Virus record (IMG/VR): IMGVR_UViG_3300013368_000005
Span: 96,001-160,000 of that record
Reading direction: 5' to 3' (one strand)
Source of the DNA: a virus
Taxonomy: Duplodnaviria > Caudoviricetes
DNA: 64,000 bases
Below, piece by piece: positions 4,362-52,601 of the stretch. The translations under genes and the position numbers were made by a program. Below the pieces are notes generated by a model. The model searched no databases, was not told where the DNA came from, and worked only from the letters and a program-made list of their open reading frames with translations. Positions within the stretch are counted from its first letter, which is position 1. Each line of letters starts with the position of its first letter.

Positions 4362-4817
4362 ATGTATTTTGATGCTATTATGAAATATATGAATTTATAT
4401 AATATTAAAAGAAATAAATTATTTAAAAACATTTATAAGATGATATATTATTTTAAATATATAAAACCAATGATTGTGTTTGAAACAGATATATTGTCAT
4501 ATAAATATATTAAACCATTATATAATTTAGTAAATTTATTTGGTACTATAAAATATAATAAAGGGCAAATAAGTTCAATTAATAACAGACTGATTATAGA
4601 AAATATTATTATTTATAACAAGATTACAATTAATCTATATGATTATGATAAGGAAATAGAATTGATAATAGATAAAGATGATTCAACAAGGATTATTACA
4701 AATATAATCCATAGAACTTTTGATGAAGCGATAAAGGATGAATTAAATATATGTAATAAAATTATACAATATTGTATAAAACATGTTTGTAGGATAATAT
4801 TTTTAAGAAGAGGTTAA
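4362..4817 (+). CDS. Hypothetical protein
   Basis: ORF with GAGGTG RBS, followed by a terminator. Confidence 0.7.
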   Translation: MYFDAIMKYMNLYNIKRNKLFKNIYKMIYYFKYIKPMIVFETDILSYKYIKPLYNLVNLFGTIKYNKGQISSINNRLIIENIIIYNKITINLYDYDKEIELIIDKDDSTRIITNIIHRTFDEAIKDELNICNKIIQYCIKHVCRIIFLRRG

Positions 4818-4836
4818 TCCTCTTCTTTTATTTTTT
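4805..4836 (+). terminator. Intrinsic terminator
   Basis: AAGAAGAGG-ttaat-CCTCTTCTT followed by a T-tract. Confidence 0.75.
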
Positions 4837-4847
4837 ACTTTAACCTT

Positions 4848-4859
4848 AACAGATTAATA
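4848..4859 (+). promoter_or_regulatory. Late-type promoter of sbcD
   Basis: AACAgattaaTA immediately before the RBS. Confidence 0.7.
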
Positions 4860-4874
4860 AAGGAGTGATTAAAT

Positions 4875-6071
4875 ATGATACCAATGGTTAAATTTATATC
4901 TGAGGAAGAGCAAATATATAATTTAAATATAAAAAATAATACATTAAGGGGAACATTAAAAGAAGTTCATATAGCAGATATTCATTTTGGGGTATTAGAT
5001 CCAAAATATCAATACACTATTTTGACAGAACAATTTACAAATAAATTGATTAATTTAGATTTTGATGTATTGGTCATAGATGGAGATTTATATGAGCACA
5101 AATTTATGAGTAGTTCAGACCCTATAATGTATGCATCATTATTTGTAAATGATCTTATAAATTTATGCAGAATTAAATCTGCCACATTCGTTATTCTTCA
5201 TGGTACTAAATTGCATGATGATAATCAACTAAAAATGTTTTATCATTATCTAACTGATGAAACAGTAGATGTAAGAATAGTAGAAACTCCAAAATTTGAG
5301 TATATTAAAGGGGCTAAAGTATTGTGTATACCAGAAATGAATAATTTAGAGTCTTCGATATATGAAAATTTACTATATTATTCAGGATGGTATGATACTG
5401 CATTTGTGCATGGGGAATATTTAGGTTCTATATATAGAGAAAAAAATGTTGTCCCAACTCTAGAAGGGCATACTCCTATATTTACATTAGATCATTTCTG
5501 TTATTGCAAAGGACCAATATTATCTGGTCATGTCCATGTAACAGGATGTTTTGCTGGTTATTATTATTATTGTGGTTCACCATATAGATGGAAATTCGGT
5601 GAAGAACAAGAGAAAGGGTTTTTAATAGCTCTTCATAATTTAGATACACAATGGCATTATGTACATTTAGAACCTATAAAATCATATAGGTATGATACTA
5701 TTAATTTAGATATGATGTTGATTCAAGACCCAAAAGATGTAATTGAGTATGTAAATAAATTACAAGAGCAAGGAATAGATTATATAAGGTTAGAATTTAA
5801 AAAAGAATTAAATGATAAAGAGATAGCCAACTTAGAAATATTAAAGAAATATTATAGGTCTATTAAAACTGTTAAATTAAAAATAGATAATGCTAAGAAA
5901 AATGAAATGTTGAAAGCCAATGAAGAACTAATGCAACAATATAGTGAATATGACTTTATAATGGATAAAAATTTATCCCCAGAAGAAATATTCTGTAGAT
6001 ACGTAAATATACAAGAAGGTTGTGAATTTATATCTGTAAATGAGCTGGTTGAATTATTAAAAGAAGAATAA
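4875..6071 (+). CDS. sbcD: SbcD/Mre11-like metallophosphoesterase nuclease
   Basis: ADIHFG, DGDLY, HGTKLHD, GHVH and YCGS motifs. SbcC partner at 42836. Confidence 0.88.
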   Translation: MIPMVKFISEEEQIYNLNIKNNTLRGTLKEVHIADIHFGVLDPKYQYTILTEQFTNKLINLDFDVLVIDGDLYEHKFMSSSDPIMYASLFVNDLINLCRIKSATFVILHGTKLHDDNQLKMFYHYLTDETVDVRIVETPKFEYIKGAKVLCIPEMNNLESSIYENLLYYSGWYDTAFVHGEYLGSIYREKNVVPTLEGHTPIFTLDHFCYCKGPILSGHVHVTGCFAGYYYYCGSPYRWKFGEEQEKGFLIALHNLDTQWHYVHLEPIKSYRYDTINLDMMLIQDPKDVIEYVNKLQEQGIDYIRLEFKKELNDKEIANLEILKKYYRSIKTVKLKIDNAKKNEMLKANEELMQQYSEYDFIMDKNLSPEEIFCRYVNIQEGCEFISVNELVELLKEE

Positions 6072-6097
6072 TTGAAAGTACTTGTAAAGGTACTTTC

Positions 6098-6111
6098 AAT
6101 TATATATTATA
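6098..6111 (+). promoter_or_regulatory. Early-type phage promoter AATTATATATTATA
   Basis: One of 12 intergenic, gene-oriented copies of the motif. Confidence 0.75.
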
Positions 6112-6146
6112 AATATAGAAATAATAAAAAGGGAGGATCAATTATT

Positions 6147-6392
6147 ATGAATATGAAAAAAGATTTGTTAATACAAGTTCATTGTAACGAATATAAATAT
6201 GAATCGGGATTGATAAAGAAGTGGGCTAATGAATTTTATAGTCTTCTATCATATGATAGAAGTACATGTATATCAACAATTAACTTTAAAGAAAAGGTTA
6301 TAAAAATACACAGTAAATTAAAATTTCAAAAAAGAATAATTAATAGGCAGCGATTATATGAAAAAAGAAAAAGATTAGGAAGATCACTATAG
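6147..6392 (+). CDS. Hypothetical protein (early class)
   Basis: RBS GGGAGG and early promoter 6098-6111. Confidence 0.7.
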   Translation: MNMKKDLLIQVHCNEYKYESGLIKKWANEFYSLLSYDRSTCISTINFKEKVIKIHSKLKFQKRIINRQRLYEKRKRLGRSL

Positions 6393-6438
6393 TTTAATTT
6401 ATTAAAGTTTAAAAGAAAAAATAAAGAGGAGAGATATT

Positions 6439-11231: not shown

Positions 11232-11260
11232 CTCAATTAAAAATAATAGGGGTGGATGTT

Positions 11261-13084
11261 ATGAATTTAGAACGAAGAAAAAAATATCAAAATCAAGGTA
11301 GAACAGCAGTTCAAACAGATAAAAAAATAGATATAAATTTTGATTTAAATGCATTAAATTTAATGTGTGTATATGTATTATCAGAGAATAGAAATATAAG
11401 AAGATCTCATCTAATAAATATGAGAAACTTATTTGAAATAATAGATTTAGATTTATATATAAATGATATAGAAAAAATGAAGAGAGTAAATTTTATTAAA
11501 AAAGGATTGGAAGGAAAGCTATTACATAATTTAAAAAACTCTGTAATAGTTATGAAATATATAAATGGTGGATTAATGGATGATGATATTATTGATATAA
11601 ATAATTTTGTATCATTATCCAATGAAGAGTTAATGTGGATTAATGAAACAGTATCAGAGTCTTTAAACTATGCTTTCATCTATAATGATATAGATAAGAT
11701 GATTGATATATGTACAAGATTTAAAGCTGCTGATTATAGAAGCAGAGGGGTTATAGTAGACGAAATACAAGGACTTATAAATGATATGCAGACTAAATTC
11801 AGGAGGACAAGAGTTCAAAGTTTATCTGAAGTTAGTTTCTGTCTAAAACAAGGACTAATGGAAGAAGTAGTTGCAGATATTCATGAGCAATTAACAAGTC
11901 CATCACGTAGATTAATCACAGGAATGCAAGGATTAAATGAATTACTAGGTGGAGGATTTGAAAGTACTAGAGTTTATATGTTATTGGGTTTAACAGGTGT
12001 AGGTAAATCTGTAACATTATTAAATATAGCTTATCAAATTAAAAAATATAATAAATCTTATAAACCAAAAGACCCAACTAAAATTCCAGCAATTTTATAT
12101 GTAACGATGGAAAATACAGTTGCAGAGACTGTTGATAGATTGTTCACAATGTCTACAACAGCAGATGATATGAAAAATCATAGTAAAGAAGACGTAATAA
12201 ACATGCTTAGGACAGAAGGAGAATTATTCCTTACTGATTCTGATCCAATAGATATAGTAATTAAATTCGTGCCAGATAGATCGGTAGATACAGGATATCT
12301 ATATACAATGGTTGAGGATTTAGAAGATGAAGGATATGAAGTAATAGCATTAGTACAAGACCATATTAAGAAAATAAGGTCAGCATATAAACATAATGAT
12401 ATAAGATTGGAACTAGGTTCTATAGTGAATGAGTTTAAGGTATTTTCTGCTTTAAAGGACATGCCAGTTATAACTAACTCTCACTTAAATAGAGAAGCTG
12501 CTAGAGTTGTAGATGAAGGTAGGAAACATAATAAAGCTGATTTAACTAGAATGCTAGGACGAGCTAATGTTGGAGAATCAATGCTTATGATAGATAACTT
12601 AGATTGTGCATTCTTAATAGGATTAGAATTTGATGCTCAAGGTAATAAATATATGGCATTTAATAGAATTAAAATGAGATATAAAGCTACAAATAGGGAT
12701 TATATATGCCATCCGTTTGTTCCAGGAAATGGGATTAAACTTGTAGAAGATTATTATCTTCAAGTTCCTGTATTTAAAGATTCTCTCAAAGTACAACCAG
12801 AGGAAAGTAGTCTTTATAATGCTCATCAAGTTCAAAGAAAAGAACCTGCGTATGCGAGTAATATTAGAGATATTGATGATATCCTTACTAATAAAACTAT
12901 TGATGATGATGTAAATATATTTACAGCTTCAAGATATATGTCACAACCTAATATCACCCAAATATATCTGGAAGAAGATAATGTAATAGATGTTGAAACA
13001 ATGCCAGCATTAGTTGCAGGGAAGAGATCAACATCAACTCGTGAATTACAACCAATGGTAACATTTAAAAGAGATGTAGCGTAA
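11261..13084 (+). CDS. dnaB: DnaB-like replicative helicase
   Basis: ITGMQGLNELLGGGF, Walker A GLTGVGKS, YVTMEN, VQDHI, NSHLNR, IKMRY. Confidence 0.92.
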   Translation: MNLERRKKYQNQGRTAVQTDKKIDINFDLNALNLMCVYVLSENRNIRRSHLINMRNLFEIIDLDLYINDIEKMKRVNFIKKGLEGKLLHNLKNSVIVMKYINGGLMDDDIIDINNFVSLSNEELMWINETVSESLNYAFIYNDIDKMIDICTRFKAADYRSRGVIVDEIQGLINDMQTKFRRTRVQSLSEVSFCLKQGLMEEVVADIHEQLTSPSRRLITGMQGLNELLGGGFESTRVYMLLGLTGVGKSVTLLNIAYQIKKYNKSYKPKDPTKIPAILYVTMENTVAETVDRLFTMSTTADDMKNHSKEDVINMLRTEGELFLTDSDPIDIVIKFVPDRSVDTGYLYTMVEDLEDEGYEVIALVQDHIKKIRSAYKHNDIRLELGSIVNEFKVFSALKDMPVITNSHLNREAARVVDEGRKHNKADLTRMLGRANVGESMLMIDNLDCAFLIGLEFDAQGNKYMAFNRIKMRYKATNRDYICHPFVPGNGIKLVEDYYLQVPVFKDSLKVQPEESSLYNAHQVQRKEPAYASNIRDIDDILTNKTIDDDVNIFTASRYMSQPNITQIYLEEDNVIDVETMPALVAGKRSTSTRELQPMVTFKRDVA

Positions 13085-15882: not shown

Positions 15883-16293
15883 ATGAATAATGATAAAGAA
15901 TTAAAACCAATGGTAGTGTTTAACGAAGGGTTAAACGATGACGAAAGAGTAGCAAAAATAGCGAAAGTACTAGAATGCAATGAGAATAGAAACATTGCAG
16001 AAGAAGAGTTATTAAATGGCTCAAAGAAAAAATATCTTATCTTATATTATATGATAGGAGATGATAATGATATTATAAAAGGCTGGGATGAAATCAAAGG
16101 AAGAGAATCAGCTTTCAAATTTATAAAGAGCATGGTAGATAGTATAGATATACATGCTTCTAAGATAATGGTAGATACAGTTCCATTTTCAGAAGCTGTG
16201 AGTATATATGAGTTTATGCAACATGTACAAGGATTAATTGATGATGAGTTCGATATTGAAGATTACAATAACGGACAAAACATAATAGATTAA
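15883..16293 (+). CDS. Hypothetical protein with N-terminal KPMVVF motif
   Basis: ORF with AAGGAG RBS and early promoter 15806-15819. Confidence 0.8.
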   Translation: MNNDKELKPMVVFNEGLNDDERVAKIAKVLECNENRNIAEEELLNGSKKKYLILYYMIGDDNDIIKGWDEIKGRESAFKFIKSMVDSIDIHASKIMVDTVPFSEAVSIYEFMQHVQGLIDDEFDIEDYNNGQNIID

Positions 16294-17207: not shown

Positions 17208-17265
17208 GTAGTGTAAAATAATATAATAATAAATAAAATATATGAATTTTAAGGAGGAAATATTT

Positions 17266-18280: not shown

Positions 18281-18304
18281 ATGACGATGAAGGAGGATTT
18301 AGGG

Positions 18305-20635: not shown

Positions 20636-20688
20636 TCCCATTAATCGAATACTTTGTATATAACGTATAATTAGGAAGGTGATTTAAT

Positions 20689-23349: not shown

Positions 23350-23532
23350 ATGGTAGAAGAAAAAATTGAGAAGCGTAAACCACATATTAATATTGGAACA
23401 ATAGGACACGTAGACCACGGTGGAACAACATTAACAGCAGCTATAGCATCGGTATTAGCAAATAATGGATATACAAAAGCATTCAGCGATGTCGATATAA
23501 ATAAGGCATCAAAGCATAATGAATATAAATAA
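23350..23532 (+). CDS. EF-Tu N-terminal fragment mini-protein (residues 1-59, P-loop K24G)
   Basis: [23 protein letters not shown] is near-identical to EF-Tu [23 protein letters not shown]. Own RBS (AAGGGGG) and clean stop. Confidence 0.85.
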
Positions 23533-33533: not shown

Positions 33534-33588
33534 TATATGTAGTAGAAAATCTCTACTACATATATCTTTGTTTAGGGAGGAGAAAGGT

Positions 33589-35817
33589 ATGTCTAATAAT
33601 ATAACTTTTGCAGAGGATGTTTCAAAAGCCTCTGATCGTATTGACAACTTAGAACAATGTTTAGCTAAAGGACTATTTATGCCTTTTAACAGTTCTACCT
33701 CTGGGTCTAGAAACTTGCTATTCTCGACACAGTTAGAACACAAATTACCTCTAATGAGAGGTGAAGTACCATTATTAGGAACAGGATATGAACCATTATT
33801 TGGTGAATATTCATCATCGTTTATTAGAACAGATTCCGAATATGATGTCATAGAAAGGGTAGAAAAATTTGGTCAAATTCCAGGTCATCACTATTATTTA
33901 ATAGTGTTTAATAAAAAGAAACAAGAGTTTGATATGATAGAAAGAAAATCATATGAACACATTACCGAATCGTATGGATATCTATACGATAATACAAATA
34001 TAGATAAATATAAATCAGGTTCATCAATATATGAAGGTGAAGTAATTAGAAAGAGTACTAGTTTTGATGAATTCAATAACAGAAAGGATGGAGTGAATCT
34101 TAATACTGGATATATAAGTTGTGAAAAGACCAAAGAAGACGGTATAATTATATGTGAGAGTGCAAGAAGAAAATTAGCATCTCCACTTATAAGAAAAATA
34201 AAAATTATACAAAATGATAATGACCTTCCTTTGAATATATATGGAAACGATGAACTATATAAATCATTTCCAGATATAGGTGAAGAAACATCTAATAAAA
34301 TATTATGTGCATTAAGAAGGGAAAAGAAAGAAGAATCTTTATTTTCCTTATCATGTACAAGATTGAAAAATATAATGATGTCAGATGAAAGATTTATAGC
34401 TGAGGGAAAGGTTATAGATATAAATGTATTTTGTAATAATCCTGATAATTTAAATTCAGTATATACATCGCAAATAAAATATTATTATGATCAACAACAA
34501 GTATTCTTAGAAACTTTTGTAAATGCTACAAAGGAAATTGTAGGTAAATATAAATGTAGCTATGCTTTACAAAAGATGCATTATAATTGTAAAAAGATTT
34601 TGGAAGGCGGGCAATATATCCAAGATAAGCCTTTTAGTAATAATGTAATAGAAATAACTTTATTAGAGGAAAGTTTAGTAAATGTAGGGGATAAAATATC
34701 TAATAGATATGGAGGTAAAGGAGTTGTATCTTGTATACTTCCAGATCATTTAATGCCTAGAATGGATAATGGACAATATATCGAATTGATATATAATTCA
34801 TCTACATGTGTAAATAGAGGAAACCCAGGACAATTATATGAAACTTCTATAAATCATATAGGAGGAAGAATAGTAGATTTTGTATCAACTGGTACTTTAG
34901 AATTTGCAGATCAAGTTGAAATGTATCTAGGATTCTTACGTCATCTATCTCCAGATTTATCTGCACATATTGAGAACTCCATGCTACAATGGAGTGTAGA
35001 AGATCAACGTGTATTTATGGAAGGCGTATTTACTGAAGAAGGTATAGCTGTATCGATGAAACCTATATCTGAAGCTATAGACATAGATAAATTAAGATCA
35101 ATATATAAAGAATTTTCTTTTGCTATGCAAAATAAAATTATTATACCACAAAAAGATTCTATGGGAAATATAAGATATATTCCAGCAAGAAGAGCTATAA
35201 CTTGTGGTAAACAATATATTTATAGATTAAAACAATATGCAGAAGAGAAATTCTCAGCAGTTTCTCTATCAGCTACAAATATTAAAAATGAGAATACGAG
35301 AAATGCATCTAAGAAAAATTATAAATCTGCTTATTCTAAAACACCAATAAGATTCGGTGAAATGGAACAAGGAGATTTTGGTCACTTAGGAATGGAGGTA
35401 GTTATTGTTAATCTAATGCTTCATTCTACATCACCACATGGTAGAAGATTGGCAGAAGAATTATTAACAGGAGATCCATTTAGTGTTGATATTAAACTTG
35501 ATGAAGATTCTAAAAATAGATCTGTTGAAGTTAATAATGCTTTTTTAACAACAATGGGGTTAGAATTAGAATTTGTTAAAGTAAGGAAGGTACAACAAAG
35601 ACTTATACAAAAATCATTGGTTACTTTTAAACAACCAACTTCTAATAAGTTAGTACAAGGCGTATGGTTTCCTAAGGAATGGGAAAGATTAGACCCTGTT
35701 GAATTTATAGATGGGTTTAAACATAAAGATACAAGAAAATTCTTGGCATTAAAGTCTATGGTAACATTTGGTAAAAAACTAGATGAGGAGACTGGTATGT
35801 ATAAGAAGGAGGATTAA
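33589..35817 (+). CDS. Multisubunit RNA polymerase beta subunit, C-terminal half (non-virion RNAP type)
   Basis: EDGIII, VGDKISNRYGGKGVVS, NRGNPGQLYE, YRLKQ, PIRFGEME; early promoter. Confidence 0.92.
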   Translation: MSNNITFAEDVSKASDRIDNLEQCLAKGLFMPFNSSTSGSRNLLFSTQLEHKLPLMRGEVPLLGTGYEPLFGEYSSSFIRTDSEYDVIERVEKFGQIPGHHYYLIVFNKKKQEFDMIERKSYEHITESYGYLYDNTNIDKYKSGSSIYEGEVIRKSTSFDEFNNRKDGVNLNTGYISCEKTKEDGIIICESARRKLASPLIRKIKIIQNDNDLPLNIYGNDELYKSFPDIGEETSNKILCALRREKKEESLFSLSCTRLKNIMMSDERFIAEGKVIDINVFCNNPDNLNSVYTSQIKYYYDQQQVFLETFVNATKEIVGKYKCSYALQKMHYNCKKILEGGQYIQDKPFSNNVIEITLLEESLVNVGDKISNRYGGKGVVSCILPDHLMPRMDNGQYIELIYNSSTCVNRGNPGQLYETSINHIGGRIVDFVSTGTLEFADQVEMYLGFLRHLSPDLSAHIENSMLQWSVEDQRVFMEGVFTEEGIAVSMKPISEAIDIDKLRSIYKEFSFAMQNKIIIPQKDSMGNIRYIPARRAITCGKQYIYRLKQYAEEKFSAVSLSATNIKNENTRNASKKNYKSAYSKTPIRFGEMEQGDFGHLGMEVVIVNLMLHSTSPHGRRLAEELLTGDPFSVDIKLDEDSKNRSVEVNNAFLTTMGLELEFVKVRKVQQRLIQKSLVTFKQPTSNKLVQGVWFPKEWERLDPVEFIDGFKHKDTRKFLALKSMVTFGKKLDEETGMYKKED

Positions 35818-35821
35818 TTTT

Positions 35822-38131
35822 ATGAATAGTTTAGAGACTTTATGTTATATCGTAGATAATTTACTTAAAAGTAATCTACAAGTGTTAACTGAAGAAAATA
35901 TTAAACTAATAAATGAAATAACTGGTGCTGTGTTAAAGTTAACACAGCATTCAGATTATGATATTCAATGTATGGATAAGATATTATTCTTATCGAATAT
36001 ACTATGGGAAAATACGGATAGAAATAAATTGCCTTTAGATGATGGCATATATGATTTATTAATAGAATTATATAGAAAATATAATCCTAATTTTCAAGTT
36101 GGAGCACCATCTATACAGTTTATAAATACAAATGGCTTAGATGGAGAAAAATTTGAAATGCAACCATTAGTAAGGTTTATAGAACAAGATAAACTAGAAG
36201 ATATGTTATTTGCAAATCAAATAGTTCCTGCAACTAAATATACTAAATTAGATATACTACAACCAATGATTTCATTCGCAGATACTAATTATATATCTAA
36301 ACGTATAGTAAATCAAAAACAATTGAATCCAAAATTGGTTGGAACTTTAGATAAGTGTAAATTCGTTTTAAATGCTCAAGCAATAGATAAAGGGGTATTT
36401 AATGATTCTAATGTCAAAGTTCTTGAAAGAGATTTCTTTCAAAAACATATACAACAAGGAATATTAGATCCTAATAGAATATTTTCAATGCTTTTAGAAC
36501 TTAAATTTGATGGTGTATCGGTTTCAGCAAAAGTATCAAATAAAGTACATCAAGCAATGACAAGAGGAGATGCGAATAATGAAGTAGCAGCAGATATAAC
36601 TCCTATTCTATATGACTATAAGTTTCCAAGAGCAACAGGAATTATTCCAGAAAATGAATGTTTTGATATGAAATTCGAAGCTATTATGACTTATTATGAT
36701 CTTTATAGATATAATATAGCTAGAGGGAAGAATTATAAAAATTGTAGAACAGCTATAATTAGCGTGTTTGGTTCATCAGATGCAGCTAAATATAGGGATT
36801 ATATTACATTAATGCCTATAACGACATCTTTAGATATTGATAGATTATCAGAAATGGAGTTCTTAGATAACTATTATCAGACTGGAGAAAGAATAAGGTA
36901 TGCAGTCATATCTGGAACTTATATAGAAATATTATTTCAGATTAAAAAATTTGTAGAAGAAGCAGAATATATGAGATCATTTATTCCATATATGTATGAT
37001 GGAATAGTTGCATCATATTTAGATGAAGATTTAATAAATACTCTTGGTAGAGAGAATTCTATTAATAAATATTCTATGGCTATTAAATTTAATCCTTTAA
37101 AGAAACAGACTATATTTAGAGGATATACGTATGAAATAGGTCAAGATGGTAGTGTAACTCCGATGATACATTATGATCCAGTAGAATTTTATGGTACAAT
37201 ACATCCTAAATCTACAGGTCATTCTTATGAGAGATTTAAAACATTAGGATTAAGAATAGGAGATATCATAGATGTTGAATATGTAAATGACGTAATGCCT
37301 TATGTAACTAAACCAATAAATACTCATAATGATAATAATCAAAATGCATTAGAAAATTTTATAACCCACTGTCCATATTGCCAATCTCAATTAGTTATAT
37401 CAGAATCTGGAAGATCTGTATATTGTAAGAATATAGAATGTTCAGGTAGGCATCTATCTAGGATAGTGGGCACATTTGATAAATTAGATATTAAAGATTT
37501 CTCTGAAGGGCAATTGAAGAAAATAAATAAATATACATTAACAGAATTACTTCAATTGAAATTAGAAGATGTAGAATTTTTGGGAGATCTTACAAGTACC
37601 AAATTTATACAATCTATGAATGAATTATATCATAGAGAGATTTATGATTTTAATCTAGTTGGTGCCTTAGGGTTTACAAGTGTAGCATCTAAAACTTGGA
37701 TGTTAATATTGAATAAAATTTCTTTACAAAAAATGATTAAATTATATTCTGAAGATGTTGATCAATTGAGAAATATAATTGTTTCAATTAAAGGTATAGG
37801 TCCTATTACAGCAGATACAATTGTTAATGAATTTGAATTCTTTATGAATGATTTAATAACTATATGTACATTTCCAAATCTCATAATCACTGAGGGAATT
37901 AAGTTAGGAAAGAAGATAAGATTTACAGGATTTAGAGATAAAGAGTTAGTAACTAAGTTAGCTTCCCTGGGATATGATATAGGTGAAGGTTCAGTAACAA
38001 AAGATACGGATATATTGTTAATTCCTGTATCAACGTATAGTAGTCCAAAAACTAAAAAGGCTGCTAGTTATGGTGTAAATATTGTTCCAATAGATGAATT
38101 TAGAGCTGATATGGAACAGTATTTAGCGTAA
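35822..38131 (+). CDS. ligA: NAD-dependent DNA ligase
   Basis: ELKFDG adenylation motif, TRGD, YDGIV, AIKF, C4 zinc finger, HhH GIGP, C-terminal BRCT. Confidence 0.93.
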   Translation: MNSLETLCYIVDNLLKSNLQVLTEENIKLINEITGAVLKLTQHSDYDIQCMDKILFLSNILWENTDRNKLPLDDGIYDLLIELYRKYNPNFQVGAPSIQFINTNGLDGEKFEMQPLVRFIEQDKLEDMLFANQIVPATKYTKLDILQPMISFADTNYISKRIVNQKQLNPKLVGTLDKCKFVLNAQAIDKGVFNDSNVKVLERDFFQKHIQQGILDPNRIFSMLLELKFDGVSVSAKVSNKVHQAMTRGDANNEVAADITPILYDYKFPRATGIIPENECFDMKFEAIMTYYDLYRYNIARGKNYKNCRTAIISVFGSSDAAKYRDYITLMPITTSLDIDRLSEMEFLDNYYQTGERIRYAVISGTYIEILFQIKKFVEEAEYMRSFIPYMYDGIVASYLDEDLINTLGRENSINKYSMAIKFNPLKKQTIFRGYTYEIGQDGSVTPMIHYDPVEFYGTIHPKSTGHSYERFKTLGLRIGDIIDVEYVNDVMPYVTKPINTHNDNNQNALENFITHCPYCQSQLVISESGRSVYCKNIECSGRHLSRIVGTFDKLDIKDFSEGQLKKINKYTLTELLQLKLEDVEFLGDLTSTKFIQSMNELYHREIYDFNLVGALGFTSVASKTWMLILNKISLQKMIKLYSEDVDQLRNIIVSIKGIGPITADTIVNEFEFFMNDLITICTFPNLIITEGIKLGKKIRFTGFRDKELVTKLASLGYDIGEGSVTKDTDILLIPVSTYSSPKTKKAASYGVNIVPIDEFRADMEQYLA

Positions 38132-38936: not shown

Positions 38937-39575
38937 ATGGCTATAGTAAGAAAAGGTAAAGTGTTAGGAAAGATGTATGATGTGATAACTCCTGAAGAAT
39001 ATTCACAGGAACCTGATATATATAATAATAACTTTACAGCTATTCAAAAAGACAATATATTATACCCAATAAGCAAAACAAGTGCTAAACCAGGGTTCTT
39101 TGTAAAGAACCAAATTGTATCATTTTTTATCGACCCACCTGAGGAAGAAAGAGAACAGTATTCAGCAGATACAGTTATTGACTTTACTCAAGTAAGCAAT
39201 ATAAAAGAGATGATTGATAAATCCACATCTTTAGAGGATATAGAAAGAAAGATATTATGTACACCAGATAATATCTATGTTCCTTATATGGATTCTAAAG
39301 ATGCACCAGAAGTTAGGGGATTAAAAGAAGCTATCGAAGCTAAACATATAGATTTAGATAAATATGAAGATAGATTCGATGGTAACTATAATAATGATAG
39401 AAGATTACTTAATAAGAATAATATATCATTAGGTAAATATAGAAAAATATCTGATGCTTTAGATATAAAGGTAACACTAATTTTAGAAGATAAGCATCCA
39501 AATGTACCTAATCCAATGGGTAAAACAATAACAGTAGAATTAACATCTGGAGGTGATGACTCTAGTGATGAATAA
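38937..39575 (+). CDS. Hypothetical protein (possible C-terminal HTH)
   Basis: ORF with GAGAGG RBS; SLGKYRKISDALDI resembles the end of an XRE HTH. Confidence 0.75.
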   Translation: MAIVRKGKVLGKMYDVITPEEYSQEPDIYNNNFTAIQKDNILYPISKTSAKPGFFVKNQIVSFFIDPPEEEREQYSADTVIDFTQVSNIKEMIDKSTSLEDIERKILCTPDNIYVPYMDSKDAPEVRGLKEAIEAKHIDLDKYEDRFDGNYNNDRRLLNKNNISLGKYRKISDALDIKVTLILEDKHPNVPNPMGKTITVELTSGGDDSSDE

Positions 39576-41289
39576 TATATCACAATATCAAATAATTAAA
39601 CAATATAATGATACTCATAGAGAACCATTTAATAATGAATTATTTGTAAGGGATGAAAAAGATATAATCGAATGCCTTCAAAAAGTTATACTATCTTGTC
39701 AGAGAAATCATTACTTTACATTGAGAGTAGAAAGTTTTAAGATAATAGATAATTATGAAGAAATGATGGCTATACTCGCAAGGAATGAGGAAGAAGGACT
39801 TAAGAATAAAAATAAGAAGAAGGTAAATCAGTATGAATATGTAAACTTAAAAGATACTGATATGGTTCTAATGATAGTCACCTATTATATAGAAGCTAAA
39901 GGGAAATCACAATATCTTGATGTATATATATTAATACCTAAAATTGTAGATAAATATTACTTTAGAATATATGGTAATTTATATTGTGCTAGTTTGCAAG
40001 TTGTAGATGCTAGTACTTATAATAACAATTATTCTAGTAATGCAAAAAAACAGGTAGTAACAGAAAAGACGACTTTCCAACCTATAAGGATATATAGAAA
40101 TCTGGCTTTACTTACAACGGTAGATGGCGAGGATTTAAAGACAGTTTACTATACATCGCGTATGTTTAATAAGTCATTTTGTGCGTTTAAATATATCTTA
40201 GCAAGATATGGATTGTACGGAACTATAAACTTTACAGGAATAACATGTATATCTATATTAGATAAAATACCAGATAATAAGGATATGCATAATTTATATG
40301 TATTCGAAAAGGAAGGTATTTATATATCTATTCCTAAAGAAATATTTGATAATGATTATACAACACAATCTTTAATATTAACTTTATGGAGTTCTATCCA
40401 TAAAGATACAAAATATCAAGATTTATTTACACAAGTATATTGGTTAAAATCATTAGGTGGAGAGTTTAATACATTTACACCAGAAAAAGGATATGATTTA
40501 CTAAAATCATTAGAAAATATTTATGATATAATCACTAAGGAAGATTTACACTTACCAGAAGATGTAAAGAAAGATGTATACGGTGTTTTATTTTGGTTAA
40601 TTAGAGAATTTGGTAATCTTAGAAATAAAGATAACCTAGATATTTCTACTAAGAAAGTAAGATGTGCAGAATATATAGCGTCTTTATATGCTATGAAAAT
40701 GGCACAAGGTATATATAGACTATCAGATAAACGTACTAATGTATCTATTGAAAGTATTAGGAAAGTTATACTTATAAAACCTACTTTCTTAATAGAATCT
40801 ATATCAAGATGTAACTTGGTTAACTATAGAAATTTAGTTAATGACTTGGATGCTTTGACAGCATTAAAGTATACTTATAAGGGTATATCAGGTATAGGAG
40901 AGAAAGGAAATAATTCTGTACCTAAAGCATATAGAAGTATTCATGTGTCACATTTGGGAAGAGTAGATGTAAACTCATCATCTAAATCAGACCCAGGTAT
41001 GTCTGGTCTTATATGTCCATTCACAAAATTATATAATGGTTCATTCTCTGAATTTGAAGAACCAAATACATGGGATGAACAGTTTAGTAGTTTAATGGAT
41101 AATTATAAAAAAACAGTTGGCTTAAAAGAATTGATAACATTTAAGAAGAATATATTAGGAGAACAAAATTTAGAAGAGGATGAAAAATTTGTTGATAGTT
41201 GTATAGATAATATGCAAACTTTAATAAATCCAGTCCGCTTTGTTGAAAACACAGCACAATATGTTGTAGAAGATTCTGTAAGTATATAA
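39568..41289 (+). CDS. Multisubunit RNA polymerase beta subunit, N-terminal half (non-virion RNAP type)
   Basis: YFRIYG...LQVVD and YRSIHVSHLGRVDVNSSSKSDPGMSG correspond to RpoB FIINGxERV and RDVHxSHYGRxC...GL. Confidence 0.85.
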   Translation: MNNISQYQIIKQYNDTHREPFNNELFVRDEKDIIECLQKVILSCQRNHYFTLRVESFKIIDNYEEMMAILARNEEEGLKNKNKKKVNQYEYVNLKDTDMVLMIVTYYIEAKGKSQYLDVYILIPKIVDKYYFRIYGNLYCASLQVVDASTYNNNYSSNAKKQVVTEKTTFQPIRIYRNLALLTTVDGEDLKTVYYTSRMFNKSFCAFKYILARYGLYGTINFTGITCISILDKIPDNKDMHNLYVFEKEGIYISIPKEIFDNDYTTQSLILTLWSSIHKDTKYQDLFTQVYWLKSLGGEFNTFTPEKGYDLLKSLENIYDIITKEDLHLPEDVKKDVYGVLFWLIREFGNLRNKDNLDISTKKVRCAEYIASLYAMKMAQGIYRLSDKRTNVSIESIRKVILIKPTFLIESISRCNLVNYRNLVNDLDALTALKYTYKGISGIGEKGNNSVPKAYRSIHVSHLGRVDVNSSSKSDPGMSGLICPFTKLYNGSFSEFEEPNTWDEQFSSLMDNYKKTVGLKELITFKKNILGEQNLEEDEKFVDSCIDNMQTLINPVRFVENTAQYVVEDSVSI

Positions 41290-41310: not shown

Positions 41311-41529
41311 ATGGAATACTTTTTATTCTCAGCAAGTCAATTAAAGAAACAAAAAGAAATTGCCGATACATTAGGAAAAACATATTCTCCAGGAACCGTA
41401 TTAGTTGGTGGTCAATATAAACAATTTACTGAAAAAGTTACAGACTTAAAGAAGGCAAAATTTTCAGATTACATTATTGTGACTCAAGGTCCTAAAGGTA
41501 CTATAAAGTATATAGGGGGCTATAGATAA
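41311..41529 (+). CDS. Small hypothetical protein
   Basis: AGGAGG RBS. Confidence 0.75.
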   Translation: MEYFLFSASQLKKQKEIADTLGKTYSPGTVLVGGQYKQFTEKVTDLKKAKFSDYIIVTQGPKGTIKYIGGYR

Positions 41530-41855
41530 TGAAACCACTCGTTACTTTTAAAAATAAAAAAGAATTTAAATGTTTTAATTGTGGTGGAACAATAGTAAGA
41601 AAAATATCTGAAACTAATAATGTATCTATAGATTCCGAAGGTCATCCTTCGGAATTTGATACATTATATGATGAGTATTATATATGTTCTAGCTGTGGAG
41701 ATGATTTAACAGAGTTTGTCAGGAGAGTTAATAATCATTTTTACTTATCAACTAGGGGTTATGATATTCTAGTATCGGATTTAATAGAAAAAAGAATAGC
41801 AGATAATAATATAAATCCGTTTGGACATTATGGAAAGGATGAAGAAAATGAATAG
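41529..41855 (+). CDS. Zn-ribbon protein with N-terminal KPLVTF motif
   Basis: CxxC...CxxC; start overlaps the previous stop. Confidence 0.75.
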   Translation: MKPLVTFKNKKEFKCFNCGGTIVRKISETNNVSIDSEGHPSEFDTLYDEYYICSSCGDDLTEFVRRVNNHFYLSTRGYDILVSDLIEKRIADNNINPFGHYGKDEENE

Positions 41856-42453: not shown

Positions 42454-42494
42454 GGGTCTTCCCTTATCTTTATTTTTTGAGAGGTGAATATTAT

Positions 42495-42791
42495 ATGCAA
42501 AAAATGATTGAATTTAAGAGACCAGATTATTGTATACACTGTGAAACAGAACGTGCAATAGAGGGTTATGATAAATTTGGAAAACCTATAAATTATACTT
42601 ATTTAATAGATCAAAAACAACTTGGTAAAGAAGTAAGTGATAAATTAGATAGAAGAGAAGTTACATTTATGAAGTGCAGAAAATGTAATCATGAATTCTT
42701 TATAGATTGGAGAACCAAAGATAATATTCCTAAACCCATAAATAGCTTTGTTCCTATAGATTATTTTCTTATATCAAATTATAAATATTAG
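42495..42791 (+). CDS. Zn-ribbon protein with N-terminal QKMIEF motif
   Basis: CIHC...CRKC and GAGGTG RBS. Confidence 0.75.
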   Translation: MQKMIEFKRPDYCIHCETERAIEGYDKFGKPINYTYLIDQKQLGKEVSDKLDRREVTFMKCRKCNHEFFIDWRTKDNIPKPINSFVPIDYFLISNYKY

Positions 42792-45544: not shown

Positions 45545-45690
45545 CATAATGATAAGAAGAAGTTCGGTTTACTACACTTTATGTGTATTTATATATAGGG
45601 CATGTAAGAGTGTTCTTCGTGCCCATCTTTTCATAAATAAATTTCCACCTTAAATATTTATTATTATATCTAACGTGTTGTGACAAAAAA

Positions 45691-45726
45691 AAGAAGAGGA
45701 TTAATTTCCTCTTCTTTTTACTTTTT
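45691..45726 (+). terminator. Intrinsic terminator
   Basis: AAGAAGAGGA-ttaatt-TCCTCTTCTT followed by a T-tract. Confidence 0.75.
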
Positions 45727-45775
45727 ATATAATATTAAACAAATAAGTAAATATAATCCAAGGGGGATGTAAGAA

Positions 45776-46096
45776 ATGAATGATAAACAAAAATTATTAA
45801 AATTATGTAGAATATGGAATAGTCAACATGAGGAGAAATTCCATATTAATCTAATAAACAATTATGAGGATTTTAGTATATTATTTGGTTCAAGAATAAG
45901 AGGAGTATATAAAGGAATATTTGGGAGATTCACAATATTAAGAGACAATAGAACCGTTTACATTGGCGATAGAGTAGATGATTTTATATATATTATAAGT
46001 ACAGCTTTGATTAGAAAAAATACAGATCTAATTCATTTATTAATGATAGAAAAAATTTTTACAATAAATACTGAGCAAGTTTGTTTCAATAATTAA
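45776..46096 (+). CDS. Hypothetical protein
   Basis: AGGGGG RBS and late promoter 45738-45749. Confidence 0.7.
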   Translation: MNDKQKLLKLCRIWNSQHEEKFHINLINNYEDFSILFGSRIRGVYKGIFGRFTILRDNRTVYIGDRVDDFIYIISTALIRKNTDLIHLLMIEKIFTINTEQVCFNN

Positions 46097-46116
46097 AATA
46101 AAAGGAGAGATTAATT

Positions 46117-46863
46117 ATGAAATTCGATACACCTGTAAAAATTAAATTAGCTACGAAGTTTGGAGCTAAAAATAGAAATAATGTGGTTATGTTTAGGGAA
46201 CAATATGAAAATGTTATAAAAAATGACAATATTATAAAAGGAGTTAATGAGACAGGCTATTTATATATTTATGATAGATCTATAGTAGATACTAAAGAAT
46301 ATAGGGATAATGAATTTTCAGGAGCAGACATTAAATATATTGTAGGTAAATTAAAGAGTTTAGATGATATAGACTTAGATAATATGACAATGTTAATATA
46401 TTTTGATAAAGAATATATAGATACATTAGGCGATTTATCAAAATATGTAATAGATATGCATTATTATGCAAAGTGCCATTGGCATAATAATATAAATATA
46501 ATAAGTGATATCTCTATGCTTAAATGCTATACAATGTCATTAGAAGCTCTTTCTGCATATCATGGTGTAGATGTAATCTATCTTGATATAGACAAAAGAT
46601 TAACGCATCTTGCTGGTTATAGATTAGGTAGGTCTATTTATAATGAACAAATTAAGGATAAGATTAATGAAAATAATTATTTAAGTATAGTATTTCCTGA
46701 TCATGTAGAAAATGTTTTTCGTTCATTTATATTTGGTTTAACTGATAATATCGGTATGAGCTACGAATTGGAGAGACTATCGCTTATAGGAAAGAGTACT
46801 AAAATAATAGATAGTTTTGAAAAACACAAACAAAATGATAAAATGTTAGTAACAGAGGTATAG
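46117..46863 (+). CDS. Hypothetical protein with C-terminal STAS-like (DUF4325-like) domain
   Basis: LAGYRLGRSIYNEQI...IVFPDHVENVFRSFIFGL resembles Firmicute DUF4325-type proteins (recalled pattern, not searched). Confidence 0.55.
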   Translation: MKFDTPVKIKLATKFGAKNRNNVVMFREQYENVIKNDNIIKGVNETGYLYIYDRSIVDTKEYRDNEFSGADIKYIVGKLKSLDDIDLDNMTMLIYFDKEYIDTLGDLSKYVIDMHYYAKCHWHNNINIISDISMLKCYTMSLEALSAYHGVDVIYLDIDKRLTHLAGYRLGRSIYNEQIKDKINENNYLSIVFPDHVENVFRSFIFGLTDNIGMSYELERLSLIGKSTKIIDSFEKHKQNDKMLVTEV

Positions 46864-47358: not shown

Positions 47359-48315
47359 CTAATATTCTGCTAATCTATTATCATTTATTACTATTAATGG
47401 ATAAGTAATATCTAAGTTAGTATTCCTTGCAATACCATTTCTTTTATCGATAGATAAATCATCTATAAACATAGAATCTGGTTTAGTTACATTAGGAACA
47501 CTCTCTCCTGTAGTTACATCCATTACATCAAACCATCTTTGACCTGTAGAACCATCGTATACTACTACAGTCTTTATATTACTGTCTTGTTCTAATCTCA
47601 TCATATTTTGAGCTGGTGACATGTTTTGAGCATAATTTGCATAAGGATCTTCTTGGGCTATACCAGTTCTAATTATATTAGATGCAGAAATAGGACTTGT
47701 AAAATCTGCTACATTCATTGGTATAGATGGTCCATTATAAGTTCCTGATGGTGTATTAATATATGCTTGATATAAGTCCATAATTCTCTTATCATCATCA
47801 ACTTTATCTTCAGACATTTTGAGGTCTTTAATTCTTTTCATGTCCAAGTTATGACAATCTGTAATAGTTTTATTTAACTCTCTGATTGCTGTAACTTTTG
47901 TTCCTATTAGAGTACTAGCAGTACTGGTAAGCATAGCAATATAATCATATTTCTTTTTTAATGTTTTAGAACCTTTAATCAAATCTAATTCAGTTTTGAT
48001 ATCATTCTGAAAAACATCTATTTGAGCTACTGAATTTCTAAGTAAATTATTCGTTTCTGAATAACTTTCTAAATATGGTTGATTAGATTGGTATAAAGGT
48101 AAATCGGAATCATCTTGATTTGCTAATATTATATCGTTTCCATCACTTAACCTCTTAGTTGATACTGACTTACCTTTCTTTTTCTTCTTTGTAGATAGGT
48201 CCATATCTGAACCTATCAAATCTAACGGAATAGGCTCTGCCTCTGTTGTAAAGAAATCAAAGTTTACTCCACTAGAACCCCCTTTTTCTTCTTTAAAAGT
48301 AACCATTTTCTTCAT
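47359..48315 (-). CDS. Hypothetical protein with N-terminal KKMVTF motif
   Basis: AAGGAGG RBS and late promoter 48336-48347. Confidence 0.85.
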   Translation of the reverse strand: MKKMVTFKEEKGGSSGVNFDFFTTEAEPIPLDLIGSDMDLSTKKKKKGKSVSTKRLSDGNDIILANQDDSDLPLYQSNQPYLESYSETNNLLRNSVAQIDVFQNDIKTELDLIKGSKTLKKKYDYIAMLTSTASTLIGTKVTAIRELNKTITDCHNLDMKRIKDLKMSEDKVDDDKRIMDLYQAYINTPSGTYNGPSIPMNVADFTSPISASNIIRTGIAQEDPYANYAQNMSPAQNMMRLEQDSNIKTVVVYDGSTGQRWFDVMDVTTGESVPNVTKPDSMFIDDLSIDKRNGIARNTNLDITYPLIVINDNRLAEY

Positions 48316-49606: not shown

Positions 49607-49609
49607 TGT

Positions 49610-49972: not shown

Positions 49973-50280
49973 TGAAAAGAACAACTGATAGAGGGTTTGA
50001 TATTATCGAATTCAAAGATTGGTATAATCATTCATGTAGTATTCAGAGAAGTTCATCACAAACAATAGATTCCAATGAGGAAAAAGAAACTATATGGTTT
50101 GGCATCAATGATGCTGAACCAATAATACTAGCTAGTAAAATAATTAAAGGGGGCACTGGATGGGCTAGTTATCCTATACCTGATGATGTATTTATACCAA
50201 CTCGTATGCATTTAACTAGGGAACAAGTAAAAGAATTGATACCTATATTACAAAAGTTTGTAGATGAGGGCGAGATATAA
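49963..50280 (+). CDS. Hypothetical phage protein
   Basis: ORF with AGGAG RBS overlapping the previous gene. Confidence 0.8.
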   Translation: MEIMKRTTDRGFDIIEFKDWYNHSCSIQRSSSQTIDSNEEKETIWFGINDAEPIILASKIIKGGTGWASYPIPDDVFIPTRMHLTREQVKELIPILQKFVDEGEI

Positions 50281-50541
50281 AGATACTTGATAAATTTATT
50301 GAAAACTTCGTTTGTATAAATACACTTATTAGGTTATGGACCTCACGAAAGTGGACATAAAATGCTATGAGAACAAAATAAAGAAGTATGTATGGAATGG
50401 GAATTATTAAAGAATAAAGTATGGCAATCTAAGTATAGAGATTGTAAAGTTATTGAAGTGACTGATATCTTAACAGAAACTACTAAAGAAGCAGTAAATA
50501 AAGTAATATATCTACAGGAGTAGGATTTTCACTATACTGTA

Positions 50542-50581
50542 AATAAACTAGCATTAATCGTGCTAGTTTATTTTTTATTTT
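50542..50581 (+). terminator. Intrinsic terminator
   Basis: AATAAACTAGCA-ttaatcg-TGCTAGTTTATT followed by a T-tract. Confidence 0.75.
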
Positions 50582-50587
50582 GTATGC

Positions 50588-50599
50588 AACATATATATA
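50588..50599 (+). promoter_or_regulatory. Late-type promoter of polB
   Basis: AACAtatataTA after a terminator. Confidence 0.65.
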
Positions 50600-50648
50600 A
50601 TGCGTAAAGTGACCACTAAAGGTTAATAAGGAAGAAAGAAGTGATTTT

Positions 50649-52601
50649 ATGTTGCTAAAAAATTATATAGAAGGGTCAGATTTGACATTATTAAATACTT
50701 ATTATTTATATCCACAAAAGAATGAAGAAACAGGAAAATGGAGTAAAGATTCAATCACTCTGATTTATAAAGATAATGTTACGGGACAAAAACATCATGA
50801 AACAATACATGAGCCAGATTATGAATTCTATATGGCAAAACCAGAAGAAATGATTGATCATAATATGCTCTTTATAGAAAAAGAGAAAGTACAAAAAATA
50901 TCATCACCATATAGTAAATTAGAAAAAACAATAGCAGAAGTTACCGACAATCTACCATTTTATTATGATAATATAAAAAATGGTAATAGAAGAGCAAATC
51001 AAAGATTACATGACGATACGAGAATATTTGGTTCTGATAGTAATATAGAAGAGCACTATAGATTTAGATTTGATAATGAATATACAAATAGCATCATACC
51101 TATATCTAAAGCATATTTCGATATAGAAGCAGATACTATTAATATGAAGGGAGATTTCCCAGAGCCAGGAGAGTGTCCAGTAAATGCAGTAACACTCATT
51201 AACGAAGCAACAAATAAAGTTTATGTATTTCTATTAAGAAATCCAAATAATCCTTTAATAGAAGAATTTGAAAAATCTATAAATAATGATTTATTTGTAG
51301 AATTAAAAGACTTTATAAGAGATTCAGTTGGAGGGTATAAAAAAGAGATAAAATATGGATTAGATAAATTACAATATGAGTTTCTTTTTTATGATGAAGA
51401 AATAGGTTTATTACAAGAGTTATTTTTAGCAATAAATACATTACAACCAGACTTTATAATGGCATGGAACATGGCATTCGATATGCCATATATGATTCAG
51501 AGAATTAAAAATTTAGGTTATTCAGCAGAATCTATAATCTGTCATCCAGATTTTGAGGTTAAGGTTTGTAAATATAAAATAGATGAAAATGCAGATATAT
51601 TATCCGAAAGGGGGGATGATGCAACAATTAGTTCTTATACAAAATATATAGATCAATTAATACAATTTGCATCTAGAAGAAAAGGTCAAGGAGTATTCTC
51701 AAACTTTAAATTAGACTCCATAGGAAATCTAACTGTAGGGGTTAAAAAATTAGATTATTCTCATATCACTACTAGTATAGCAAAATTACCATATTTAAAT
51801 TATAAGGTGTTTGTTTTTTATAATATCATAGACGTAATTGTTCAAAAATGTATAGAATCAAAAGTTGGTGATATAGACTATACTTTTAATAAATGTCTAA
51901 TAAATAATACAAGATATAATAAAGCACATAGACAAACTGTATATCTCGTAAATAGAGGAAAAAAAGAGTTTTATACAGATGGGTTTATAATGGGAAATAA
52001 TACAAATAGGAAAAACGCTAAGCCAACAGAAAAATTCCCAGGTGCATTTGTTGCAGACCCAATGAAATTAGATGATTATGCTAAATTAAAACGATATGGA
52101 TTGCCAGTAAACATATTTAATAATTCTGATGACTTTGACTATAAATCACTATATCCAAGTATAATGAGAGAATTTAATATTGCACCTCATACACAAATAG
52201 GAAGAATCGATATATTGGATAAGATGTATAACAATGAAGATCCATTTAATAATAAATATTATAATAGAGGTGGAGCATTTATAGAAGATTTACATTCGGG
52301 GGTATTTTTACAATTTGGTCATAGGTGGTTAGGACTAGCACAGTATAGCGATTTATATAAGGATATATTAGAATACTTTACTAAAAGAGCATTTAGTGCT
52401 AATCCAGTGTTTATGTTTAACGATAAAGGTCAAGTTCCTATGGTTAGATTTAGGCAAGAAGGACAAATGATGAAGATGGTTTCATTTGATGAAGGTAAAC
52501 AAAGAATGGTTTATAAATATTATCAAAAACCAGATTATCAAAATATATATGATAATATAAATAGAAATGGGGTTGCTATAGGTGTTGGTACAATTGAATA
52601 A
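50649..52601 (+). CDS. Family B DNA polymerase, exonuclease plus motif-A half of a split enzyme
   Basis: ExoI FDIEAD, ExoII AWNMAFD, ExoIII YNIID, FPGAFV, motif A DFDYKSLYPS. Motifs B (KxxxNSxYG) and C (DTDS) are absent. Confidence 0.9.
   Translation: MLLKNYIEGSDLTLLNTYYLYPQKNEETGKWSKDSITLIYKDNVTGQKHHETIHEPDYEFYMAKPEEMIDHNMLFIEKEKVQKISSPYSKLEKTIAEVTDNLPFYYDNIKNGNRRANQRLHDDTRIFGSDSNIEEHYRFRFDNEYTNSIIPISKAYFDIEADTINMKGDFPEPGECPVNAVTLINEATNKVYVFLLRNPNNPLIEEFEKSINNDLFVELKDFIRDSVGGYKKEIKYGLDKLQYEFLFYDEEIGLLQELFLAINTLQPDFIMAWNMAFDMPYMIQRIKNLGYSAESIICHPDFEVKVCKYKIDENADILSERGDDATISSYTKYIDQLIQFASRRKGQGVFSNFKLDSIGNLTVGVKKLDYSHITTSIAKLPYLNYKVFVFYNIIDVIVQKCIESKVGDIDYTFNKCLINNTRYNKAHRQTVYLVNRGKKEFYTDGFIMGNNTNRKNAKPTEKFPGAFVADPMKLDDYAKLKRYGLPVNIFNNSDDFDYKSLYPSIMREFNIAPHTQIGRIDILDKMYNNEDPFNNKYYNRGGAFIEDLHSGVFLQFGHRWLGLAQYSDLYKDILEYFTKRAFSANPVFMFNDKGQVPMVRFRQEGQMMKMVSFDEGKQRMVYKYYQKPDYQNIYDNINRNGVAIGVGTIE

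Follow-up and report, generated by a model that had tools for sequence, protein, structure and literature searches.

In phage T4, gp43, gp33 and gp55 have C-terminal clamp-binding motifs in common that can replace one another (PMC2988020), and in phage Mu, MuC uses the beta clamp of the host for late transcription (PMC12867686). The phiKZ/AR9 group has been described by Iyer et al. as being without a classical sliding clamp (PMC7824862). A clamp-derived domain in chimalliviruses was first reported only in October 2026, in preprints describing Rhc, a fusion of RNase H to such a domain that binds the split polymerase (DNAP-N/DNAP-C), pulls down subunits of the non-virion RNA polymerase (RNAP) and affects late transcripts (PMC13648687, PMC13648698). 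Rhc was reported to be monomeric, with an interface of ~1,800 square angstroms and not a shared peptide (PMC13648687, PMC13648698). Here, we describe a stretch of 64,000 nucleotides (the window) of the IMG/VR virus record IMGVR_UViG_3300013368_000005, in which a short peptide of the form [KQ]-[PKS]-[ML]-[VI]-x-F (the tag) recurs on replication and transcription proteins, and in which an unannotated open reading frame (ORF) behind the DNA polymerase gene encodes a predicted sliding-clamp-fold protein of 205 amino acids (aa). We found neither the tags nor the clamp family described in the literature that was searched.

The record comprises 186,590 bp with a GC content of ~26% and a CheckV completeness of ~75%, and the window corresponds to its bases 96001-160000. 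Its split family-B polymerase shows 31% identity to the counterpart in Bacillus phage AR9/PBS1. In addition, two gene orders are as in AR9, namely PolB-N, portal, virion protein and tail sheath, and UvsX, non-virion RNAP beta-C, NAD ligase and non-virion RNAP beta-N. Judged from the polymerase similarity and the matching gene order, the phage belongs, as a distant and uncultured member, to the AR9-like jumbo phages. Four near-complete IMG/VR genomes (G001, G002, G003 and G005), with core proteins 39-53% identical, were compared whole with the studied genome (G000), and 24 further clade loci were obtained from a collection scan. The scan was seeded with the alignment of PolB-N, the first part of the split polymerase, because the clamp-family alignment was too divergent.

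A recurrent peptide in extensions of replication and transcription proteins

The recurrence of one peptide on the polymerase, helicase, ligase, nuclease and late RNAP of this phage is real; the peptide is enriched, lies in extensions or insertions and is replaced lineage by lineage. All peptides picked out in a preliminary description of the window (IPMVKF, QPMVTF, KPMVVF, KSLVTF, KSMVTF, QPLVRF, QPMISF, KPLVTF, QKMIEF, KKMVTF, KPMIVF, INPVRF and the triple in PolB-N) are encoded where they had been placed. Statistics cover the whole genome, represented by a greedy set of ORFs (203 proteins, 57.7k residues), with 1000 within-protein shuffles as the control. The strict pattern was observed 12 times, against a shuffle mean of 0.86 and a maximum of 5, and the pattern [PKSRQ]M[VI]xF 18 times against 2.3, while the reversed pattern and six sibling patterns showed no enrichment. 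An unbiased scan of all four-fixed-residue patterns, in which distinct proteins were counted, placed PMV.F first (6 observed against 0.09, p = 7e-10); its rank was sixth once repeats within single proteins were counted. When only the terminal 35 residues were considered, the top three patterns were PMV.F, K.MV.F and MV.F, and 13 of the 25 M[VI]xF sites lie no more than 30 residues from a terminus, against an expected 21%. None of the 12 strict matches falls in a protein recognised as virion by Pfam, PHROGs or AR9 homology. One looser match, RDMVTF at 1641-1658 (minus strand) in the virion-module protein at 1602-2549, was rejected as a false positive lying within a conserved folded C-terminal domain. 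The preliminary description had also stated that the codons differ between the copies, and this is the case (mean pairwise nucleotide identity 0.62), so the copies are not a DNA repeat. Its comparison with the PP1 RVxF motif holds as a likeness of form only.

The tagged proteins of the window are listed in Table 1. Further tags were found outside it, on the C-terminal tail of non-virion RNAP beta'-C, in an insertion of ~50 residues in PolB-C (the other polymerase part), on a 273-aa protein, in the C-terminal extension of a 270-aa protein, at the C-terminal end of a Dam methylase and on two short proteins, one of 45 aa and the other of 61 aa. As had been proposed, the copies sit in termini and extensions, and alignments with AR9 place them in segments that AR9 does not have: the N-terminal extension of the SbcD-like protein, the DnaB tail, the RNAP beta-C tail, the ~80-residue PolB-N tail (absent from AR9 g132, the PolB-N counterpart), and the insertions of the ligase and PolB-C. 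Both ligase tags lie in an N-terminal insertion of ~65 aa. In this respect the tags resemble clamp-binding short linear motifs, being located in flexible termini and loops common to the polymerase and other DNA enzymes. The tagged RNAP subunits belong to the non-virion (late) enzyme, in agreement with the preliminary description; they are orthologues of AR9 g105 (non-virion RNAP beta-N, best match of the product of 39553..41289), g089 (beta-C, best match of the product of 33568..35817) and g154. The label SbcD is less firm, as it derives only from AR9 g002, which shows 25% identity and carries the annotation Mre11/SbcD-like metallophosphatase; the tagged protein itself gave no match in Pfam, PHROGs or PDB sequences. 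No orthologue was found for the 157-aa ORF.

Several other proteins of DNA metabolism carry no tag. Full genes for GyrB-like and GyrA-like type II topoisomerase subunits are located beside the replication module (18281-23046, plus strand), and neither product is tagged; the UvsX-like, SbcC-like and Dda/RecD-like proteins are likewise without a tag.

Table 1. Tagged proteins and the candidate hub gene in the window (positions are those of the window)
Feature	Position	Strand	Domain matches	Tags and remarks
157-aa ORF	4344..4817	+		KPMIVF 4464-4481; near the N-terminus only given a start at an internal Met; weakest member
Mre11/SbcD-like metallophosphatase	4875..6071	+		IPMVKF, residues 2-7 (4878-4895), in N-terminal extension
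DnaB-like replicative helicase	11252..13084	+	Pfam divDNAB, DnaB_C	QPMVTF 13049-13066, five residues before the C-terminal end
136-aa protein, function unassigned	15883..16293	+		N-terminal KPMVVF 15904-15921
Non-virion RNAP beta, C-terminal part	33568..35817	+	Pfam Rpb2_6	C-terminal tail, KSLVTF 35611-35628 and KSMVTF 35752-35769
NAD-dependent DNA ligase	35783..38131	+	Pfam ligase domains	QPLVRF 36161-36178 and QPMISF 36260-36277
Non-virion RNAP beta, N-terminal part	39553..41289	+	phrog_2943	Weak tags near the C-terminal end, KELITF 41125-41142 and INPVRF 41224-41241
Small Zn-ribbon protein	41529..41855	+		N-terminal KPLVTF 41532-41549
Small Zn-ribbon protein	42477..42791	+		N-terminal QKMIEF 42498-42515
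p318, conserved 318-aa protein, function unassigned	47359..48315	-		N-terminal KKMVTF 48295-48312
PolB-N (exonuclease and first palm part of split family-B polymerase)	50649..52601	+	Pfam DNA_pol_B_exo1, DNA_pol_B	Three tandem tags in C-terminal tail, 52434-52451, 52470-52487 and 52500-52517
Candidate hub, 205 aa, unannotated	52594..53211	+		Predicted sliding-clamp fold; alternative start GTG 52582

Replacement of the tag in related phages

The literal motif is not conserved in any of five related IMG/VR phages, and it is absent from G001, G002, G003 and G005. Instead, the corresponding sites of the same proteins are occupied in each of these genomes by another peptide. In G002 the peptide is L-I-[DN]-P-L, observed 13 times against 1.1 in shuffles, with all copies at or near termini; it is carried by the SbcD-like protein, DnaB (twice), the orthologue of the 136-aa protein (twice), a Zn-ribbon protein, p318, RNAP beta'-C and a 57-aa protein that is the positional counterpart of the tagged 45-aa protein of the studied genome. 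The corresponding peptides are approximately I-x-P-M-x-F in G001, K-P-[LV]-[FY]-K in G003 and V-[IV]-x-R-[VR] in G005, the last with three tandem copies in the PolB-N tail. In a cross-genome table, the pattern of each genome is enriched in that genome only, and AR9 has none of them.

The replacement can be followed protein by protein. The N-terminal extension of the SbcD-like protein, which has no counterpart in AR9 and G003, bears the private tags of G002 and G005 in those genomes. The tails of the DnaB orthologues carry lineage-private tags (two copies in G002), and the orthologues of the 136-aa protein in G002 and G003 have their own tag twice each at the N-terminus. The RNAP beta-C tail of G001 also has two tags, of G001's own type, and the RNAP beta-N orthologue of G005 has the G005 type of peptide in the same place. 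At the site of the first ligase tag, G001, G003 and G005 each have their own peptide. The G001 and G002 orthologues of the Zn-ribbon protein at 42477..42791 have their own N-terminal tags, the p318 orthologues have an N-terminal tag of their own lineage, and the PolB-N tail in relatives contains two to three tandem lineage-private peptides.

The further loci present a similar picture. The PolB-N tail has two or three tandem short peptides, which recur at the N-terminus of the neighbouring p318 and differ between loci, for example Q-K-V-I-S-F with Q-K-I-I-S-F, or peptides of the K-P-F, A-F-S and S-M-F types. By a crude best-5-mer score, the PolB-N tail and the p318 N-terminus of one genome are more alike than those taken from different genomes (permutation p = 0.01 over 14 genomes). 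The idea of a docking code is supported in an altered form, in that the tags behave as a co-evolving code in which the same proteins bear a different, private peptide in each relative. Since the tags change in concert, this is the strongest evidence for one co-evolving partner that reads them.

In AR9, which was checked as a cultured model together with Listeria phage LPJP1, no shared tag was seen. Its DnaB-like helicase g007 (L059 / L174:3583-5268) ends in D-S-G-I-P-F, like the C-terminal tip of bacterial SSB. PolB-N itself is broken in L097, L099, L101, L102 and Listeria phage LPJP1 (L170), where the reading frame is disrupted inside the conserved palm region. Between the two pieces in LPJP1 lies an extra ORF, HNH-type endonuclease-like by eye, which suggests introns or inteins in this gene.

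A predicted clamp-fold protein encoded behind PolB-N

The last codons of PolB-N overlap with the ORF at 52594-53211, which had been named in the preliminary description as the first candidate for a hub. This ORF gave no match in Pfam and PHROG and no usable match in a feature search of the ESM Atlas; a word-indexed homology search recovered only the ORF itself, and tblastn against 50,697 cultured-phage records found nothing. Neither the gp45 C-terminal family PF09116 nor the beta-clamp N-terminal domain PF00712 matched anywhere in the genome. The relatives have positional counterparts behind PolB-N that can be aligned to the ORF, and a profile of these positional homologues found 514 proteins in a library of 1.84 billion proteins. 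A Pfam search with 60 members of this family and a search of the family profile against PDB sequences returned nothing. By sequence the protein thus falls in no curated clamp family, and its assignment as a clamp is for that reason one of fold.

An AlphaFold2 model based on a 60-sequence alignment reached a predicted local distance difference test score (pLDDT) of 95.6 and a predicted template-modelling score of 0.89; a model from five sequences (pLDDT 44.5) was discarded. A Foldseek search of the PDB with the accepted model gave 45 matches at E<1e-3, all of them sliding clamps (beta, 9-1-1, PCNA and gp45). With VIA-align, the best match was T4 gp45 (Z 10.9, 185 of 205 residues aligned, root-mean-square deviation 4.2), followed by RB69 gp45, PCNA, 9-1-1 and beta clamps, and clamps made up 50 of the 50 rows. 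According to the model, the protomer would consist of two tandem clamp-type alpha/beta domains. The preliminary choice of hub candidate is supported by this predicted sliding-clamp fold. Among the gp45 entries in the VIA-align rows are 6drt (ligase peptide) and 1b77 (polymerase peptide), and these show peptides of clients bound to a protein of this fold. The closest models in BFVD (template-modelling scores, TM, 0.74-0.77) belong to uncharacterised proteins of uncultured myoviruses, and next come annotated phage clamps, E301R of African swine fever virus and several chimallivirus proteins that are annotated as 'ribonuclease H' and have 506-557 aa. Given this annotation and length, we take the latter (TM 0.46-0.51) to be Rhc-type fusions. 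A stand-alone RNase HI of 246 aa is encoded elsewhere in the studied genome, outside the window (45649-46389 of the genome, L003:9649-10386), and is conserved in all four relatives.

A clamp-family gene directly follows PolB-N in all of the 19 clade loci examined; it was recognised in 18 by hidden Markov model and in the remaining one by hhalign (96.8% probability). No such gene is detectable in five loci, from four distinct phages, with a PolB-N identity of at most 35%, as well as in AR9 and in LPJP1, and none of these has a PolB-N tail. In G002, the clamp-family protein (L022:7520-8350) bears an N-terminal extension with a peptide of the G002 type, N-P-L-S-V, and a similar peptide is present in the PolB-N tail of the same genome; the peptide in the extension could serve self-binding or head-to-tail contacts.

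Candidate readers of the tags and comparison with known systems

Very probably, the tags have a function as a code, and a single partner reads all of them, whether this is the clamp, another phage hub, a host protein or a degradation system. Reasoning by analogy with T4, we think that the clamp-fold protein is, on balance, that partner. [KQ]-P-M-V-x-F would then be a docking tag, and the divergent gp45-like protein, probably co-translated with PolB-N, would most likely be the common platform, on whose client-binding surface the clients would dock by flexible terminal tails or surface insertions. The proposed clients are both polymerase halves, the DnaB-like helicase, the NAD ligase, the Mre11/SbcD-like nuclease, the Dam methylase, several small Zn-ribbon or unassigned proteins and three subunits of the non-virion (late) RNAP. 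Polymerase, ligase, methyltransferase, nuclease and late-transcription machinery are known types of clamp client, which supports this reading, and the two to three tags on several clients would be in keeping with a hub that has several sites, for instance an oligomeric clamp. The clamp and the tags may have drifted together, giving each phage lineage a private code. We further infer that the clamp encircles or binds DNA, and that tethering would put the late RNAP on replicated DNA, linking late transcription to replication as gp45 does in T4. The single hub postulated in the preliminary description, recruiting polymerase, helicase, ligase, nuclease and non-virion RNAP, is thus upheld as regards the co-evolving tags, the clamp fold and the identity of the RNAP, and not as regards a literally conserved motif or an import factor.

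Several points weigh against the clamp as the reader. Its binding to the tags is inferred from analogy, and the tag matches no known clamp-binding consensus. In the chimalliviruses, the clamp domain of Rhc binds its polymerase by a large surface and not by a peptide (PMC13648687, PMC13648698). The co-occurrence of the clamp family and the tags is confounded with phylogeny and may reflect a single gain in one clade, so other clade-specific proteins (~20 candidates by BLAST) would fit equally well. The patterns of G001, G003 and G005 were defined after inspection, which means that the diagonal values of the cross-genome table are partly built in; those of G000 and G002 are backed by shuffles. 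In addition, no RFC/gp44-like loader is conserved in the five genomes, where PF13177 gave no match and the PF00004 matches are not shared, in a record that is ~75% complete. This is unexpected, because a closed ring would be expected to need a loader; loader-free clamp-fold factors do exist, and a loader too divergent for detection is conceivable.

The alternative that survives best, unlikely as we judge it, is that another phage-encoded hub reads the tags, for instance a factory scaffold in the form of a condensate or a cytoskeleton-linked compartment, the clamp being only the processivity factor of the polymerase. Multivalent tags, two to three per client, would also suit recruitment to a scaffold or condensate, and the replication module in the window offers two proteins of interest here. 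One, of 306 aa (17242-18162, plus strand), combines a Cys-containing Zn-finger core with long Q/G/Y/P/M-rich prion-like low-complexity tails; it is conserved in G001, G003 and G005, has no Pfam or PHROG match and could be a condensate-type scaffold. The other, of 401 aa (30074-31279, plus strand), is a PhuZ/TubZ-like tubulin-family GTPase (Pfam Tubulin/FtsZ GTPase, 43.8 bits at a cut-off of 33), with an orthologue in G005 only among the relatives. About 20 more proteins are clade-specific by BLAST. However, for none of these candidates is there a known peptide-binding fold or a constant association with a tagged gene, whereas the clamp gene stands immediately behind the triple-tagged PolB-N tail in every clade member. 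The compartment or import factor suggested in the preliminary description also found no support, as phmmer searches of low sensitivity, run with phiKZ gp54 and gp69 on G000-G005 and AR9, detected neither chimallin nor PicA at E<=10.

A host protein (the beta clamp, DnaK or an unfoldase adaptor, for example) might instead bind the tags, whose differences would then reflect different hosts, but this is improbable. Basic-hydrophobic-basic peptides are typical chaperone ligands, and Q-P-[ML]-[VI] is loosely like the beta-binding motif of MutL, Q-x-x-[LI]-x-P. However, the consensus is, as had been noted from the start, unlike the canonical beta-clamp motif QL[SD]LF, the PIP box and the T4 LDFL type, and the proteome has none of these at any protein terminus. 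Moreover, the tags are very different among phages whose core proteins are 40-60% identical, while the beta-clamp pocket is conserved across bacteria.

Still less probable is that the tags are degrons or processing signals, by which one protease or unfoldase removes or matures the replication set at a given time: terminal position and sharing among unrelated proteins fit known N- and C-degrons, but some copies are internal, others stand in tandem in one tail, both termini are used, no cleavage-site context is conserved, and DNA enzymes with a late RNAP match clamp clients and not a turnover class. The weakest explanation, that the motif has no function and arises from composition, a common beta-strand sequence or after-the-fact definition, could draw on the skewed composition of an AT-rich genome, the post hoc wording of several patterns and the folded-core false positive RDMVTF, but is largely refuted, as the shuffles, controls and unbiased scan all single out the motif, and composition cannot produce lineage-private replacement at orthologous positions or the diagonal of the cross-genome table.

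A wider proposal is quite possible, though we would not call it probable. Throughout this AR9-related uncultured clade, one hidden clamp may run replication, repair, methylation and late transcription through a lineage-private code, in which the catalytic subunits of the late RNAP are themselves tagged, late transcription is tied to replicated DNA without sigma-like adaptors, and the code keeps the system orthogonal both to the clamps of the host and to relatives that infect the same cell. Current annotation misses this free-standing family of gp45-like clamp fold, which has more than 500 cluster representatives in metagenomes, and the tags give a ready list of its probable clients. The tag and clamp pairs would form a natural co-evolved series, showing how a hub and its short linear motifs drift while a dozen partners stay attached. 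The tags on the non-virion RNAP provide a directly testable hypothesis for the link between late transcription and replication in phages that bring their own multisubunit RNAP, and orthogonal tag and clamp pairs could serve as tethering parts.

Some other features were observed in passing. In a 60-codon ORF of the window (23350-23532, plus strand), a match to the GTP-binding domain of EF-Tu (PF00009, 30.2 bits) is confined to the first 32 positions of that domain. Elsewhere in the genome, two kinds of repeat inside single proteins are strongly over-represented, CxCVxR(T), with 12 units, and E-Y-W-x-x-Y / Y-D-E. In G002, ~18 small proteins with the motif A-P-P-Y-H-L-N form a large paralogous family peculiar to that genome.

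Among the known systems, gp45 of T4 and RB69 is the best structural match of the clamp-fold ORF, and both are two-domain protomers of roughly 200-230 aa. In the T4 system, as here, one short hydrophobic peptide on flexible tails is common to the polymerase, the ligase and the late-transcription machinery (1b77, 6drt). However, the ORF has no sequence similarity to gp45, the tag consensus differs, and no gp44/62-like loader was found; the clamp is known here as a predicted protomer fold. In the transcription machinery, the T4 peptides are located on sigma-like adaptors of the host RNAP, whereas the tags described here are on catalytic subunits of a phage multisubunit RNAP. Moreover, the tags are not confined to C-termini but are also present at N-termini and in insertions, often in tandem. 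Phage Mu likewise provides a case of clamp-coupled late transcription outside T4, but it relies on the host clamp and the host RNAP, via an activator protein.

The chimalliviruses share with this phage a split family-B polymerase, a DnaB-like helicase and a non-virion RNAP, together with a clamp-fold protein that is, or here would be, linked with the polymerase and the RNAP of the non-virion type. Unlike the Rhc gene, the clamp gene here is separate, encodes 205 aa without an RNase H part and stands behind PolB-N, the RNase H gene being ~100 kb away; in addition, no tag system has been described for the chimalliviruses. Finally, the bacterial beta-clamp motifs (QL[SD]LF and hexapeptide variants) and the archaeal and eukaryotic PIP boxes resemble the tags in that one motif at disordered termini docks many DNA enzymes. 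Those motifs are conserved across whole domains of life, whereas the motif described here is private to each phage lineage.

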